64,000 nt of DNA from an uncultured bacterium. Its GTDB lineage: Bacteria; Planctomycetota; UBA1135; GCA-002686595. Shown here one piece after another: positions 42,473 through 48,730 of the stretch. Numbering within the stretch: the first letter of the stretch is position 1; every line of letters starts with the position of its first letter. The notes beneath the pieces were generated by a model. It saw only the letters and a program-made list of their open reading frames with translations. It had not been told where the DNA came from and made no database searches. The stretch lies in assembly GCA_943787795.1 (NCBI GenBank), contig CALSNU010000007.1, forward strand, positions 113,046 through 177,045, given 5' to 3'. Made by a program: the position numbers and the translations under genes.

Positions 42473-43156
42473 CTAGCGGCGAGAGCGCCTGGATCCCGTG
42501 CGTCCCTTGAGGGCGCTCGAGCCGCGTCGCTGGGGCTGCCGCTGGACTCGTTCAGGGAAGCGGCCGGTGCCGCCCCGGGCTCCGGCGCGGCGCTCATCAG
42601 AGCGCTGCCACCGGGACCGCTGGTTGTCGGAGGGCCCGACGGCGCCTCGGGGCGCGCGCTGAGCGCGGGCCGGGCGCTGCCCTTGGGCCTTCGACCGTCC
42701 GCGCGCGTCGCCCAGCCGTCGGGCGGCGCGCCCGCGCTTCATCCGCGCCTGAGCACGCGCGGACCTGACGCGGGTGGAGCGGTCGCGGCTCGGTCGGGCC
42801 GACCCAGCGCGGGTCGACTCAGCGCGGGTCGACTCAGCGCGGGCCGACCCAGGGCGAGCGTTGGGCCTGCGACGAGCTCCCGCTTCCTCCCGTTGACCGG
42901 CGCGCCTGCCCTCCGCGCGGCGCGCTCCCTGGACGTCCCTGCGGGACCTGAGCTTCGAGCTTGAGCCCCGGACTCGTCGTCCCTCCCGGGCGTCGAGGCC
43001 GTCGAGGCCGTCGAGGCCGTCGGGGGTGGCCGGCGTCTCCGACGTGACGGGCGCCTTCTGGCCACCGCGACGCGTCTCCTGGGGCTGCGCCTCGGCGGAC
43101 GGGGAGAGCGAGATGACGAGCGCCCAGGCGAGCAGCGCGAGTGAGATGTGCTTCAT
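42473..43156 (-). CDS. Secreted Arg-rich low-complexity hypothetical protein
   Basis: Classical signal peptide MKHISLALLAWALVISLSPSAEA/Q, then an R/G/A/S-rich region with internal repeats. Confidence 0.55.
   Translation of the reverse strand: MKHISLALLAWALVISLSPSAEAQPQETRRGGQKAPVTSETPATPDGLDGLDGLDAREGRRVRGSSSKLRSRRDVQGARRAEGRRAGQREEAGARRRPNARPGSARAESTRAESTRAGSARPSRDRSTRVRSARAQARMKRGRAARRLGDARGRSKAQGQRPARAQRAPRGAVGPSDNQRSRWQRSDERRAGARGGTGRFPERVQRQPQRRGSSALKGRTGSRRSRR
42795..42854. repeat. 15-bp tandem repeat x4 within the Arg-rich ORF
   Basis: cgggccgacccagcg / cgggtcgactcagcg x2 / cgggccgacccaggg. Confidence 0.85.
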
Positions 43157-43292
43157 GTGTCGTTCCTGTTCAGGGTCCATTCGATGCCGCGACTGGTGGG
43201 CGGCACGAGGGAGGAACCGGGGGGAACGAGCGTGGGTTTGCGCCGATACGTCAGCGGAGGGGTCGCTGTTGCCAGCGGTCGAGAACGGACCG

Positions 43293-43969: not shown

Positions 43970-45265
43970 ATGACCGCAGCCCTCTTCGATGATGACGATC
44001 CGCGTGGGCGTGATCGTGAGGACCCGGTCGCGGAGGCGCCCGCCGACGCGCCCCTGGCCGAGCGCGTCCGGCCGCGACGGGCGGGGGAGGTCTTCGGACA
44101 ATCGCACCTGCTGGGCGAAGGGAAGCTCCTGCAGCGTGTCCTCGACGGGGAGGTCCAGCAGAGCCTGCTCCTCTGGGGGCCGCCGGGCGTGGGGAAGACC
44201 ACCCTCGCGCGCCTTGTGGCCGACGCTTCGGGTGCGCGTTTTGTGCCGTTCTCGGCCGTGCTCTCCGGGGTGAAGGAGGTCCGCGCGGTGATGGGAGAGG
44301 CGCGGGACCGCCGCGCGCGGACCGGCGATCGCACGCTGCTCTTCGTGGACGAGATTCACCGCTTCAACAAGGCGCAGCAGGACGCCTTCCTGCCGTTTGT
44401 CGAGCGGGGGGACGTGCTGCTCATCGGTGCGACCACGGAGAACCCGTCCTTCGAGCTCAACGCGGCGCTGCTCTCGCGCTGCCGCGTGCTGGTGCTGGAG
44501 CCGCTCTCGTCGGAGGAGACGGTCGGGCTCATCCAGAGCGCCTGCCAGTCGGAGCGGGGCCTGGGCGGCCGGATCGAGCTGGATGACGAGCAGGTCAAGC
44601 GGATCGCCAACGCCAGTGACGGGGACGCCCGGCGGGCGTTGACCCTGCTGGAGACCGTGGCCGCGGTGAGCCTGAGCGGCGGCAGGGTGGACGACGACGC
44701 CCTCGCCGAGGCGCTCCAGCGCAAGTCTGTGCGCTACGACCGCTCGGGAGATCAGCACTTCGACCTGGTCAGCGCGCTCCACAAGAGCATCCGCAACTCG
44801 GACCAGAACGCCGCCATCTACTGGCTGGCGCGGATGCTGGAGGGAGGAGAAGACCGGCGCTACCTCTCCCGGCGCCTGGTCCGGATCGCCTCCGAGGACA
44901 TCGGCCTGGCTGACCCCTTTGCGCTCCGGGTGGCGCTCGATGCCGCGGATGCGTTCGATCGCCTCGGGGTTCCCGAGGGCGACCTGGCCCTCGCCCAGGC
45001 GGCCGTGTACCTCGCCAGGGCGCCCAAGAGCAACGCCGTCTACAAGGCGCTGGCGGCCGCCCAGCGGGATGTGCAGGACACCGCGAGTGAACCCGTCCCC
45101 CTGCACCTGCGGAATGCCCCGACGGCCCTGATGAAGGGGCTGGGTCACGGCCAAGGCTACCGGTACGTGCACGACGACCCCAAGGCTCGCGAGGAGATGA
45201 AGTGCATGCCGCCGGGGCTCGAGGGCCGCAAGTACCTCGAGGACGATCCTCCGGCGCGTTTCTGA
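43970..45265 (+). CDS. rarA: Replication-associated recombination protein A (MgsA)
   Basis: PLAERVRP, WGPPGVGKTT, DEIHRFNKAQQD, GATTENPSF, SALHKSIR, SEDIGLAD, VPLHLRNAPT. Confidence 0.97.
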   Translation: MTAALFDDDDPRGRDREDPVAEAPADAPLAERVRPRRAGEVFGQSHLLGEGKLLQRVLDGEVQQSLLLWGPPGVGKTTLARLVADASGARFVPFSAVLSGVKEVRAVMGEARDRRARTGDRTLLFVDEIHRFNKAQQDAFLPFVERGDVLLIGATTENPSFELNAALLSRCRVLVLEPLSSEETVGLIQSACQSERGLGGRIELDDEQVKRIANASDGDARRALTLLETVAAVSLSGGRVDDDALAEALQRKSVRYDRSGDQHFDLVSALHKSIRNSDQNAAIYWLARMLEGGEDRRYLSRRLVRIASEDIGLADPFALRVALDAADAFDRLGVPEGDLALAQAAVYLARAPKSNAVYKALAAAQRDVQDTASEPVPLHLRNAPTALMKGLGHGQGYRYVHDDPKAREEMKCMPPGLEGRKYLEDDPPARF

Positions 45266-45300
45266 GCGGCTACAGGCCCCTCGAATCGAGCACTAGAGCC

Positions 45301-45329
45301 TTGTCTGAGGCATCTGAGGGCTCTACAAC
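45301..45329 (+). promoter_or_regulatory. Sigma70-type promoter for the candidate sRNA
   Basis: TTGTCT (45301-45306) - 17 nt - TACAAC (45324-45329). Confidence 0.5.
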
Positions 45330-45335
45330 CTCGCA

Positions 45336-45437
45336 ACCCGCAGGTGACTGTGGGCGCGGAGGACGGCGTGTTGCCGTTCCTTCCGTAACGCAAGCCACGG
45401 GGCTGCGGCGCTTGCGTCGTGGCCCCGTGACTTTTCA
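45336..45437 (+). ncRNA. Candidate ~100-nt structured small RNA
   Basis: Three consecutive hairpins (GUGA GNRA loop; bulged stem; 15-bp stem with CUUG loop + ACUUUU); G.U pairs specify the + strand. Confidence 0.6.
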
Positions 45438-45480
45438 TGCGCCGCGTCCCTCGACGGTGGAACGTCGATGCGTACGGCGG

Positions 45481-46368
45481 CTACTCGATCCGGAGGGCCA
45501 GCACCGGACCGCTGGCCTGCTTGAGGACGGCGTGGGTGACTCCCCCGAGGATCGCGGCGCTCAGGCCGGTATGGCCTTGGGTGCCCATGACCGTCAGGTC
45601 GCCTTCCTGTCGAGCCTCCTCGATGGCGCTGATCGTGGGGCCGACGACAAACTCAGTGGTGTGCTCGACACCCTGCCAGTCGACCTCGTCCATCCGCGCT
45701 TCAAAGCTCGCCTTGATGGACTCGTGAAGTCCTTCGACGACATAGGCGGGGACCATGAGGTCTGCGCTCCCCTGCGTCATGGGGTCGAAGAGCGCCGGGG
45801 GCTGGCTCACGTGCAGCACCGAGAGCGGCAGCTTGAGGTGAAGCGCCAGGTCGCGTGCCATCTCGAGCGCCGTCATGCCACGGGTGGAGAGGTCACAGGG
45901 CGCCAGGATCCGCGTGAGCGGGCGGGGCTCGGTGGGCTGGCTCCAAACATGGCAGTGGGCGCCGGCAAAGACCGCGCGCTGGGTTCCGCCGAGATCGAAG
46001 AAGTGCTGCTTCGTGTGCGGCCCAAGGATGACCAGGTCAGCCCCGATGGACCGCGCGGCGCGCAGCAGCGCAGCGTGGGGGCGACCGAGCTCCACGTGGA
46101 CCTCACTGGCGCCCCGGCCGAGGCGTGCGTCCGATCGTTCTCGCATGCGATGGGTGGCGGCCTCGGCGAGCTTCACCGTGTGATCGACGATCTCGGTGAT
46201 CGGGCCGCTCGTGTCATCGACCAGCGGCACGTCGAGGGCATGGACAACGTGGAGCTGCGCCCCGAAGGCCGCGGCGATCTTCGCCGCTGCGTGCAGCGCG
46301 CGGTCGCCTCCGGCGCGGCCGTCGTCTCCAACGACCGCGGACGCGATGGGCAGGAGAGTCTTCGTCAT
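45481..46368 (-). CDS. Universal stress protein (tandem UspA domains)
   Basis: LHVVH, G.P..L..A..ADLVILG, ILAPCDLS, DLTVMGTQGHTGL..ILGGVT.AVL..PVL. Confidence 0.93.
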   Translation of the reverse strand: MTKTLLPIASAVVGDDGRAGGDRALHAAAKIAAAFGAQLHVVHALDVPLVDDTSGPITEIVDHTVKLAEAATHRMRERSDARLGRGASEVHVELGRPHAALLRAARSIGADLVILGPHTKQHFFDLGGTQRAVFAGAHCHVWSQPTEPRPLTRILAPCDLSTRGMTALEMARDLALHLKLPLSVLHVSQPPALFDPMTQGSADLMVPAYVVEGLHESIKASFEARMDEVDWQGVEHTTEFVVGPTISAIEEARQEGDLTVMGTQGHTGLSAAILGGVTHAVLKQASGPVLALRIE

Positions 46369-46375
46369 GGCAGGT

Positions 46376-48730
46376 TCAGTCCGAGGTGTCAGCGGCGTCT
46401 CTCAGACGTGCGGACAGAAGGCTGAGCCGGCTGGACTGCTCTGCGTTTTCGACCGCACGCTGAAGCGCCCTGCGCTCTCCGACGAGCACAACGAGGCGCT
46501 TGGCCCGCGTCATCGCAGTGTAGAAGAGGTTCCTCTGGAGCATGTGTGCGTGCTGTGTCGAGAGCGGGAACACGACGCAGGGGAACTCTCCTCCCTGGCT
46601 GCGGTGGACCGTCATGGCGAAGGCGGGCCGCAGATCGCCGAGCGCACCGCGCTCGTAGACGACCTCTCGTTCGGGAAATTTCACGGTCACCGTCCCGTCC
46701 GCGTCGACCTGCGAGATGCGCCCGAGGTCTCCGTTGAAGACCTCGCGCTCGTAGTCGTTGCGGGTCTGGACGACCCGGTCGCCGGTGCGCCACGTCTTTC
46801 CGTCGAAGAGGACCTCTCGGCCTCCCTCGCCGAGGGCGTCGCGCAGGCGCTCGTTGAGGGAGTCCACCCCGGCGGGGCCCTTGTACATGGGAGCCAGGAC
46901 CTGCACGTCCCGGGCCCAGTCGAGCCCAAAGGTCTTGGGGACCCTCTCGGTCGCGACCTCGACGAGGCGCTCGGCCAGCCGCTCCTGTCCCTCCTCGACC
47001 GGGAAGAAGTAGAAGTCGGCGTCCTGCACGCCGCGGGGCGGTAGCTCCGGGAGCCGGCCCTCAAGGACTCGGTGTGCGTTCGTGATGATCAGGCTCTCGG
47101 TCGACTGCCTGAAGACCTGACTGAGTCGAGCCACCGGGACCACGCCGGACGCGAGCAGGTCGGCGAGGACGTTGCCAGCGCCCACGCTCGGCAGCTGATC
47201 GGGGTCACCTACGAGGATGAGACGAGTGGGAGATGCGACCGCGTCCACGAGCCGGCGTGCGAGGGCCGCGTCGAGCATGGACACCTCGTCCACGATGACC
47301 AGGCCCCCCTCGAGGGGCTTGTCCAGACCGTGCTCGAAGCCTCCCTCGCCCGGGATGAACTTCAGCAGGCGGTGGAGCGTGCTGGCCGGACGGCCGGTCG
47401 CCTCCGAGAGCCGCTTGGCGGCGCGCCCCGTGGGTGAGGCGAGCAGGACCTTGGCGCCGCCAGCTTCGGCGAGCTGGGCCACGAACTGAACGATGGTGGT
47501 CTTGCCCACGCCGGGGCCTCCGGTGAGGAGCGTGACCGGTTGCTTGAGGAGCTCGAGGACCGCGCTGCGCTGTCCCGGGTGGAGCTCGATGGAGGCGGCC
47601 GCCTCCGCGCGCTCGAGGTCCTCCGCCTGGGCGAGGGGCGAGGCGGGGCCCGCGAGTAGTCGCGCGAGACCGCGGGCGAGGCGCACCTCGTGCACGTGCT
47701 GCCGCGGCAGATAACAGGGGAGCTCTGCGCGAAAGCGTCCGCTTCCGTCGAGCGCATCGGAACGGTGCTCGTCCAGGGGGGGCGGCTCAGGGAGGACCTC
47801 CCGGTCGATGATGATATGGAGGCCGTCCTCCATCTCGTCGAGGGCGCGCACGAAGGCCTCCTTGGGCGCGGCACCCTCGAGCGTGTTGGCGGAGCGGCGC
47901 AGGAGATCCCCGAGGGGGAGCATCACGTGGCCCTCGCTCGTCGCGCGGTCGAGCACGTGGCGGGTCACGGCGCGCAGCCGGCGAGGGTCATCAGGAGCGA
48001 GCCCCAGCCGTTTGGCGACCCGATCAGCGGTGAGGAACCCCACGGAGGGGACGATCGAGAGGACAAAGGGGTTGTCGCGGATCATCGACTCGCACTCGGC
48101 CCCAAGCTTGGCGAGGACGGCCTGAGCCGTCAGCGGCCCCAGCCCCAGCTGTGCGAGGAACCCCTGCAGCTGATGGAGGCCCGCCTGGGCGACGACCGCG
48201 GTCCCGAGGCCCTCGGCGATCTCCGGCCGCAGGCCCTTGACGCCGACGAGGGCGCCCTTGGGGTCCTCCGCGATGCGCTCGAGCGCGTCGGTCCCGAGCT
48301 TTTCGACGATCCGCCGGGCGATGGTGGGGCCCACGCCCTCGAAGGCCTTGGACGAGAGGTAGCGGACGAGGCCCTCCTCGGTGGCGGGGGCGAGGGGCTC
48401 CGAGGCGGTGAATTCGAACTGGGCGCCGTGGTTGGGGTGGCGGCCCCACTTCCCCGAGAGGCGCACGCGGGCGCCCTCCACCGGGTCAGCGATCTTCCCG
48501 ATCGCCGTCACGCGGCCCGGAGAGAAGAGGGAACCGTCCTCAGGGGCCTGAAAACCAGGGTCTGGGTCGAGCCGGAGCACGCCGAAGAGGCTCGAGTCGT
48601 CGTGATACGTGATCGTCTCGATGGTCCCCTGGAATGTCTCCTCGCCGTCGGGTGCGGCTCGGTCGCCCGAACCAGGCCGGTCCTGGGGGCCTGTTCTGCG
48701 GGTCTGGGAGGGGTCTCTAGGCTCCTGCAA
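46376..48730 (-). CDS. recD2: ATP-dependent RecD2-like DNA helicase
   Basis: HPNHGAQF, YLSS..GVGP, LTGGPGVGKTT, SPTGRAAKRL, DEVSM, GDPDQLPSVG, FNGD, AMTVHRSQGGEF, YTAMTRAK. Start (TTG) uncertain. Confidence 0.95.
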   Translation of the reverse strand: MQEPRDPSQTRRTGPQDRPGSGDRAAPDGEETFQGTIETITYHDDSSLFGVLRLDPDPGFQAPEDGSLFSPGRVTAIGKIADPVEGARVRLSGKWGRHPNHGAQFEFTASEPLAPATEEGLVRYLSSKAFEGVGPTIARRIVEKLGTDALERIAEDPKGALVGVKGLRPEIAEGLGTAVVAQAGLHQLQGFLAQLGLGPLTAQAVLAKLGAECESMIRDNPFVLSIVPSVGFLTADRVAKRLGLAPDDPRRLRAVTRHVLDRATSEGHVMLPLGDLLRRSANTLEGAAPKEAFVRALDEMEDGLHIIIDREVLPEPPPLDEHRSDALDGSGRFRAELPCYLPRQHVHEVRLARGLARLLAGPASPLAQAEDLERAEAAASIELHPGQRSAVLELLKQPVTLLTGGPGVGKTTIVQFVAQLAEAGGAKVLLASPTGRAAKRLSEATGRPASTLHRLLKFIPGEGGFEHGLDKPLEGGLVIVDEVSMLDAALARRLVDAVASPTRLILVGDPDQLPSVGAGNVLADLLASGVVPVARLSQVFRQSTESLIITNAHRVLEGRLPELPPRGVQDADFYFFPVEEGQERLAERLVEVATERVPKTFGLDWARDVQVLAPMYKGPAGVDSLNERLRDALGEGGREVLFDGKTWRTGDRVVQTRNDYEREVFNGDLGRISQVDADGTVTVKFPEREVVYERGALGDLRPAFAMTVHRSQGGEFPCVVFPLSTQHAHMLQRNLFYTAMTRAKRLVVLVGERRALQRAVENAEQSSRLSLLSARLRDAADTSD

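Follow-up and report, generated by a model that had tools for sequence, protein, structure and literature searches.

A conserved small RNA gene beside rarA in one Planctomycetota family, predicted to pair with the 5' end of a bacterial histone mRNA

The short interval between the convergent rarA and usp genes of this planctomycete raises the question of what a compact, hairpin-rich segment with its own promoter might be doing there. A preliminary description had read it as a self-contained structured RNA gene of about 100 nt, and further as an anti-terminator-like switch from which read-through would produce RNA antisense to usp. We analyzed the segment in its window, i.e. the whole stretch of 64,000 nucleotides to which coordinates refer unless a contig is named, in the remainder of the source genome (G000; 4.7 Mb, 69.6% GC, 85% complete) and in related genomes. 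The promoter, the three hairpins, their loops and the terminal ACUUUU were all present at the positions described, and the features of the locus are listed here (A1 and A2 being alignments of homologs):

43970..45265, + strand: rarA/mgsA, an AAA+ ATPase gene (Pfam MgsA_C, E 4e-59), the usual upstream neighbour in most homolog loci
45282..45299, + strand: A/T-rich tracts 5' of the -35 element; phased tracts recur in homologs and are GAATTC..GAAA-like in relatives
45301..45306, + strand: -35 element TTGTCT; CTTG is invariant in 49/49 rows of A2
45324..45329, + strand: -10 element TACAAC, 17 nt after TTGTCT; T-A-x-A-A is invariant in A2 (conservation of CTTG-N20-TAVAA is partly imposed by the search patterns, and was first seen in the rarA-anchored homolog set)
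45336..45435, + strand: predicted small RNA of ~100 nt, its 5' end placed from the -10 element; z -5.67
45337..45354, + strand: hairpin 1, with a GUGA loop and variable sequence; 5 of 7 pairs compensatory in A1
45356..45386, + strand: hairpin 2; 95.7% of cells paired and 3 compensatory pairs in A1
45381..45391, + strand: seed UUCCGUAACGC, the exact complement of GCGUUACGGAA, predicted +1..+11 of the histone mRNA
45396..45429, + strand: hairpin 3, a terminator-like stem of 15 bp with three G.U pairs and a CUUG loop, followed by ACUUUU
45432..45435, + strand: short U tract; 3-7 T in the 10 nt after the stem in 50/56 homologs
45481..46368, - strand: usp, convergent, with two Usp domains (Pfam Usp)
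46376..48730, - strand: recD2 helicase gene (Pfam HHH_RecD2/AAA_30), the usual convergent downstream neighbour in the family

Folding of 45336-45437 gives three hairpins and an energy of -62.1 kcal/mol (z = -5.67), which none of 200 shuffled sequences equalled. A scan with consensus promoter elements reported no promoter at the RNA site, because the -10 element lacks the final T; the A/T tracts at 45282..45299 we take to be, possibly, an UP element. The pattern TTG[TCA]-N19-TA[ACG]AA occurs only three times in the 4.7-Mb genome, and its two intergenic occurrences are the promoter of the RNA and that of tRNA-Arg(ACG), which have CTACAACCTCGC in common and share the same -10 element. The RNA gene is single-copy in this genome. 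Past the usp stop codon a fourth, weaker hairpin (45441-45479) was observed, which is not conserved in relatives and is possibly the usp terminator.

The RNA had been said to match no recognized family, and in particular not to be an SRP, 6S, tmRNA or tRNA. This held throughout: Rfam returned no match at the gathering score in the whole window, with just three chance-level matches (E 0.99-6.1) within 45100-45600, and neither family models nor ARAGORN matched any of these four classes, or RNase P RNA, in the window. Likewise, 14 homolog loci searched against Rfam 15 gave two unrelated weak matches, neither of which recurred. The SRP, tmRNA and RNase P RNAs of G000 are each encoded elsewhere, as is its 6S RNA (C1:1108174-1108339), and the present gene specifies a three-hairpin fold instead of a rod with a central bubble. 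The 6S RNA itself (C1:1,108,174-1,108,339; L032) scores 47.1 against an Rfam cut-off of 46.4 bits, and lies directly downstream of a 1070-aa gene resembling a tRNA synthetase.

DNA, covariance-model and pattern searches, together with inspection of the roughly 1 kb that follows rarA in 94 additional genomes, recovered homologs of the RNA in 60/174 genomes and 22/68 genera of one Planctomycetota family, a lower bound that includes one copy (G005) cut by a contig end. The nearest named match to RarA, at 77% identity (L034), belongs to a Planctomycetota genome in which the RNA is also present. The homologs span 92-148 nt with a median z of -4.7 (below -2 in 52/56), and share an architecture of a 5' helix, a variable middle, a linker, a long 3' hairpin and a modest U tract. 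The 5' helix often begins GUUC(G)..(C)GAAC, and GTTC is found near the -10 element in 28/56 homologs; hairpin 3 is more stable on the + strand in 43/56. The linker is near-invariant as CCGU(R)ACGC, with the family-wide form (C/U)(C/U)GU(R)ACGC. In alignment A1, comprising 18 sequences of genera g1 and g4, two-sided changes were seen at 20/34 pairs, and in hairpin 3 the pairs are compensatory at 12/15 positions of A1 and at 11/11 positions of A3 (36 sequences). The covariation score was reached by 0/500 shuffles and slid controls scored far lower, though relatedness remains in these controls. Thus, the check on homologs that had been proposed came out in favor of a structure beyond chance, and the conserved promoter, conserved core and covarying hairpins bear out the self-contained RNA gene of about 100 nt.

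The usual gene order is rarA, RNA and convergent recD2. Among the loci seen, genera g1 and g4 alone have usp next to the RNA, and this gene, a lineage-specific insertion, lies outside the RNA system. In three genomes (G011, G067 and G089) either one gene or 6-8 kb lies between rarA and the RNA, which keeps its promoter and core, and the gene is therefore not just the rarA terminator region, the reading that would have undone the original proposal. Some loci depart from the common form: in L017 (G012), at about 1190-1260, a near-duplicate of the RNA's 3' hairpin comes after the original; in L464 and L466 (G142 and G162) the middle domain is expanded, bringing the whole RNA to as much as ~148 nt, with the ends and the seed kept; and in L007 (G017) rarA is in two overlapping pieces about 100 nt apart, either a partial duplication or an assembly artefact.

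Searches beyond the family gave no convincing homolog among the matches inspected: a strict pattern matched 0/162 other genomes of the order, and a looser one matched 15/165, of which nine were inspected and none was homologous. Model R2 gave matches at E<=0.05 in 28/110 genomes outside the family (12 inspected, none convincing), and a viral scan gave 15 matches, none of them convincing. A metagenome scan contained at least one clear homolog among the 117 stretches listed. Contigs of four marine RNA runs from one study cover the RNA region patchily, at a depth of 0-16.

What, then, accounts for the near-invariance of the linker? The anti-terminator-like switch had been proposed from the observation that ACGCAAGC (45388-45395) is exactly complementary to 45410-45417 in hairpin 3. 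In this genome the complementarity is indeed exact. However, the 8-bp complement is present in 1/56 homologs, the remaining ones offering 2-6 bp. Forcing 45388-45395 onto 45410-45417 costs 14.6 kcal/mol, with a probability of ~0 in the full-length RNA, and this pairing is dominant only in transcripts ending at 45417-45421. Like the tetraloop sequences, the linker/hairpin-3 complement is not conserved in homologs, and it is a chance feature of the G000 genome. The downstream genes being convergent, and the alternative pairing being found in a single homolog, the locus does not have the make-up of a riboswitch or attenuator; antisense read-through into usp is likewise unsupported, since usp is an insertion of certain lineages and the usual convergent neighbour is recD2. 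A pseudoknot between the hairpin-2 loop (NYGUU) and the linker was also considered: it is 100% paired in the 18 g1/g4 rows with no two-sided change, and across 56 homologs its loop/core complement is 3.25 against 3.06 for shuffles, so that it too lacks support. The conserved linker is better explained as a putative seed that would pair in trans with the 5' end of a histone mRNA.

The candidate partner is GCGTTACGGAA, an 11-nt perfect match to the RNA core situated 77 nt upstream of an 87-aa lysine-rich gene (G000:C4:314598-314861; complementary site C4:314938-314928, minus strand, on a different contig from the RNA). Of the 33 intergenic stretches in G000 that are complementary to the core, this one was chosen by eye and then tested in relatives. 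It directly follows a TTGACA-17-CAnnCT promoter, and among 217 promoter-like sites of this genome it is the best partner of the seed, at -19.1 kcal/mol against -16.1 for the next. A scan of start-codon regions (-45..+25 of 3503 gene calls), whose best energies were no better than those of shuffled seeds, missed the histone site because at -77 it falls outside the scanned interval. A profile of 19 homologs of the encoded protein matches PDB 9F2C (E 3e-7) and 9QT0 (E 1e-5), and the residues R43, N47, R49, T51 and D56, which make up the R/N dyad and the RxTxxxxD motif, are invariant in 19/19; the Pfam DUF1931 model falls below its cut-off, at E 0.084. On these matches the target protein is assigned as a face-to-face-type histone with a lysine-rich tail. 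Planctomycetota have been reported to possess such histones, in many cases with basic tails, and the RxTxxxxD motif, the R/N dyad and a basic N-terminal tail are shared with HTkC (PDB 9F2C) and the DUF1931 protein of PDB 9QT0, whereas the target is known here by sequence alone; RNA regulation of face-to-face histones is not described in the parts of that account drawn on here (PMC11390915). The histone gene was found in 107/174 genomes of the family. The RNase P RNA gene is some 6 kb away from it (G000:C4:314,598-321,010), and matches on shared contigs suggest that this linkage holds in several relatives as well.

The principal evidence for the partnership is that the two loci change together. 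The first 8-15 nt predicted for the histone mRNA have the linker as their reverse complement, and both loci carry the match in 42/42 genomes in which both were seen (25 computed and 17 by eye). With the histone mRNA +1 predicted from the -10 element, GCGU begins 6-7 nt after that element in 25/25 genomes, which is where the transcript is expected to start. ACGC pairs with GCGU in 25/25 and the next position outward in 0/25; conservation of the RNA stops after ACGC because the pairing ends at that next position. Position 5 is A-U in nine and G-C in 13 genomes with no mismatch, the other three of the 25 being of the bulged g86/g64 type, and position 8 is C-G in 20/25 and U-A in four (genus g39). 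Contiguous seed pairing extends over 7-11 bp in 21/25 and is interrupted in four. The three g86/g64 RNAs are without one nucleotide and pair across a one-base bulge, such that in g86, g64 and g40 the RNA GAGAUCCG-UACGC pairs with GCGUA(N)CGGAUCUC. Lineage-specific matched variants are also encountered, as in g9 (CCUGACGCA with UGCGUCAGG) and in g79, where UGAAAGA faces UCUUUCA and the pairing comprises 5 plus 8 bp. The 17 further pairs, seen by eye in a family-wide pattern search, match with one U.U mismatch (G068), and G.U wobbles are found at core positions in G102 and G073. In G073 the mRNA site GCGUUACGU predicted the RNA, which was then found beside rarA as ACGUGACGC, with a matched A-U at position 9.

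On a RarA tree of 34 taxa the G-C state at position 5 needs five changes, of which well-supported branches require at least three, and the state of this position is concordant between the partners in 28/28 labelled genomes; the tree omits g86, g40, g64, G017, G005, G089, G109, G073, G197 and G165. The mean energy is -21.0 kcal/mol for cognate duplexes and -17.3 for non-cognate ones, and 0/100000 permutations were as low, a figure that kinship inflates. Certain observations count against the pairing or blur it. The cognate site ranks 5th or lower of 25 sites in 10/25 genomes, because many sites are alike. The RNA is present and the histone was not found with this query in all four g65 genomes, G003 and G193. 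The GCGT pattern at the histone promoter is seen in 38/53 genomes with both RNA and histone, against 14/54 histone-bearing genomes without a known RNA; in 12 RNA-bearing genomes the histone promoter was missed by the pattern, and in most of the 14 genomes that have the site and no RNA seen, 1-1.5 kb beside rarA was examined. G061 (g39), in which no RNA was seen, has a decayed histone site, GCGUAAGC, and G092 and G132 have no site at the histone promoter. In G132 (L620), where no RNA was seen, the histone mRNA is nearly leaderless, with its ATG 6-7 nt after the -10 element, and the tail is short.

Taken at face value, these patterns make it very probable that the RNA pairs in trans with the histone mRNA. 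As to the consequence, we favor a stabilizing effect of pairing at the mRNA 5' end, a reading to which we give a probability of roughly 0.55. Both RNAs would be transcribed from their predicted starts, the small RNA from its own housekeeping-type promoter. The AACGC toehold, which is free in the predicted fold of G000 (unpaired probability 0.82-1.0 for 45387-45391), would then bind GCGUU and displace the lower stem of hairpin 2, which in this genus masks the 5' part of the seed. Such binding by toehold and strand displacement is suggested because the toehold is unpaired and freeing the whole seed costs 7.3 kcal/mol, less than the -19.1 kcal/mol gained in the duplex. Ending flush with +1, the duplex would leave no single-stranded 5' end of the kind that decay enzymes require. 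In the least certain steps, it could shield the mRNA from 5'-end-dependent decay, i.e. pyrophosphate removal followed by RNase E/G, and might thereby raise histone output, in the manner of FasX on ska and RoxS on yflS. Pairing at 5' ends has been proposed to shield from RppH, RNase J1 or RNase E (PMC5419742). Occlusion of the ribosome-binding site (RBS) is unlikely, because the pairing ends at the predicted +1, with the AUG 46-224 nt away, and RBS accessibility is unchanged when the site is blocked (0.558 versus 0.554, over 22 UTRs). RNase E/G was found in 5/5 genomes tested, and RNase J (TIGR00649) was not found in 4/4 genomes of the family, each 85-91% complete; as RNase J is the enzyme that RoxS blocks, the stabilizing step is drawn by analogy.

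No matchmaker protein is known for the RNA, since Hfq and CsrA were not found (0/6 and 0/5 of the incomplete genomes tested), and the small RNA is apparently Hfq-independent. Ro60 (TROVE) was detected in 1/5 genomes, G000 not being the one. Two single-RRM proteins of G000 (C4:583,137-583,445 and C1:210,100-210,407), one with a glycine-rich tail, are candidate RNA chaperones, and 2-3 copies of RRM proteins are found in each of five relatives without detectable Hfq. By analogy with RbpB (PMC11697453), these could possibly act as chaperones for the present RNA.

The same trans pairing could instead be repressive, by recruiting a nuclease or promoting mRNA decay, or the abundant 5' end of the mRNA could act as a sponge that draws the small RNA off other targets. 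All of the covariation evidence fits this equally, and there are precedents in s-SodF, whose pairing with sodN begins at the 5' end of that mRNA and reduces the mRNA half-life (PMC3919588), and in the destabilization of hns mRNA by DsrA (PMC12152304). Retention of the RNA in g65, where the histone was not found, also hints at other partners. We nonetheless hold a repressive or sponging role to be unlikely, though deserving of some weight: the duplex core is only 9-15 bp and ends at +1, far from the RBS that s-SodF reaches, and neither the start-region scan nor a genus-wide 11-mer search yielded another conserved target. A quite improbable variant places the action at the promoter, with the RNA pairing with nascent or abortive +1..+11 RNA or with the non-template strand of the open complex and altering transcription. 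The pairing does start at the predicted start and spans the length of the initial RNA-DNA hybrid, and the seed sequence equals the template strand at +1..+11. Against this, the 5' end of a transcript is buried in RNA polymerase until about 14 nt have been made, lineage-specific extensions of the pairing reach +15 to +25, and no guide-binding protein was identified.

The coincidence could instead lie in the DNA, if a site for one transcription factor were present in opposite orientations at both loci and drifted with its factor. GCGTYACGG is conserved at both, and one copy overlaps the start site, where repressors often bind. Yet the copies in g86, g64 and g40 differ by a one-base insertion, tolerable as a bulge in RNA but a change of spacing in DNA; G.U-type differences are seen in G102, G073 and G142; and the copy in the RNA gene sits between covarying hairpins, all of which make a shared DNA site highly unlikely. 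Least credible to us is the original switch, or a role only in terminating transcription from both sides, rarA and usp/recD2. Hairpin 3 does look like a terminator and is placed between convergent genes, and the alternative pairing is available in the 45417-45421 intermediate of G000, but its restriction to one homolog, the persistence of promoter and core away from rarA and the covariation of the seed with a distant locus speak against both. We thus retain trans pairing at the 5' end of the histone mRNA with a stabilizing effect. A more speculative extension, which we consider doubtful, is that an RNA encoded between two genes of the replication fork, rarA and recD2, would control how much histone is made by acting at the very start of the histone transcript, either at the promoter or by tying mRNA lifetime to replication or growth state.

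Comparison with known systems places the proposed mechanism in an existing class. RoxS/yflS of Bacillus subtilis and FasX/ska of Streptococcus pyogenes likewise cap an mRNA 5' end (PMC5419742), and as in that type the RNA here has an independent gene with its own promoter and terminator, as judged by sequence conservation only, and a seed that complements an mRNA encoded in trans at its very first nucleotides, counted from the predicted +1. There is no sequence relation to either (no Rfam match), the seed does not take the form of a C-rich run, the mRNA targeted would be that of a histone, and the pairing is known by covariation between loci alone; moreover RoxS blocks RNase J (PMC5419742), whereas in this family RNase J was not found and RNase E/G is present. 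s-SodF/sodN of Streptomyces coelicolor similarly involves an RNA of ~90 nt with a conserved stretch complementary to its target from the 5' end, but s-SodF is processed from a 3' UTR, covers the target as far as the RBS and destabilizes it (PMC3919588), unlike the present RNA with its own promoter and its pairing 46-224 nt from the AUG. [quoted passage not shown] Cyanobacterial Yfr1 is also lineage-wide, with stem-loops around an ultraconserved single-stranded motif, though with a different motif (ACUCCUCACAC), a length of 54-69 nt and another phylum (PMC2190773). The 6S RNA of lactic acid bacteria lies in the same order of rarA, RNA and downstream uspA (PMC8414754). Unlike it, the present RNA has no central-bubble rod, usp is a local insertion and the 6S RNA of G000 is elsewhere, and this synteny looks coincidental.

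Bacterial histones have been recognized only recently, and RNA-based control of histone mRNAs exists in animals. The conserved RNA gene suggests a dedicated, predicted RNA control of histone supply in bacteria, which if true would be a bacterial counterpart, independently reached, of the animal control. The mechanism class is known, the RNA family and the target class are new, and the two-locus covariation is unusually clear; support for a target from covariation between two distant loci in uncultured genomes is uncommon for sRNAs. No sRNA-target pair in Planctomycetota and no sRNA for a bacterial histone was found in the literature searched, to which subscription journals were outside scope, and ncRNA discovery papers had no mention of Planctomycet, rarA or recD in their main texts, their supplements being where the motif could be listed. 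The present pair, if true, would be a Planctomycetota sRNA and its target in genomes without detected Hfq, CsrA or RNase J. It would further test a stated prediction that 5'-end shielding works with RppH/RNase E (PMC5419742). Regulator, target and exact base pairs are named, and natural compensatory variants are available for mutational tests.

Other candidate partners of the RNA were considered and rejected. A complement of 13 nt located 5' of an M1 aminopeptidase gene (C5:251427) recurred neither among 30 loci nor in the genus 11-mer search, a motif seen in the 3' UTR of a gene for an RRM protein recurred in 0/11 RRM genes of relatives, pairing with 6S, SRP, tmRNA or RNase P RNA is weak, and a CGTAACGCA copy downstream of the RNase P RNA is limited to four close genomes. 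Within the window, upstream of the RNA, a minus-strand ORF without a Pfam match (42473-43180) has a signal-peptide-like start and repeated ESTRA motifs. Lastly, conserved palindromes, CCACGACATCTTGCGTGG and ACCACAAGATGTGGTGT among them, lie in the interval from the RNase P RNA to the gene that follows, immediately 5' of a TTGACG promoter (G000:C4:320,900-321,250, L301:2011-2250; relatives L340-L364), and we take them to resemble NrdR boxes.
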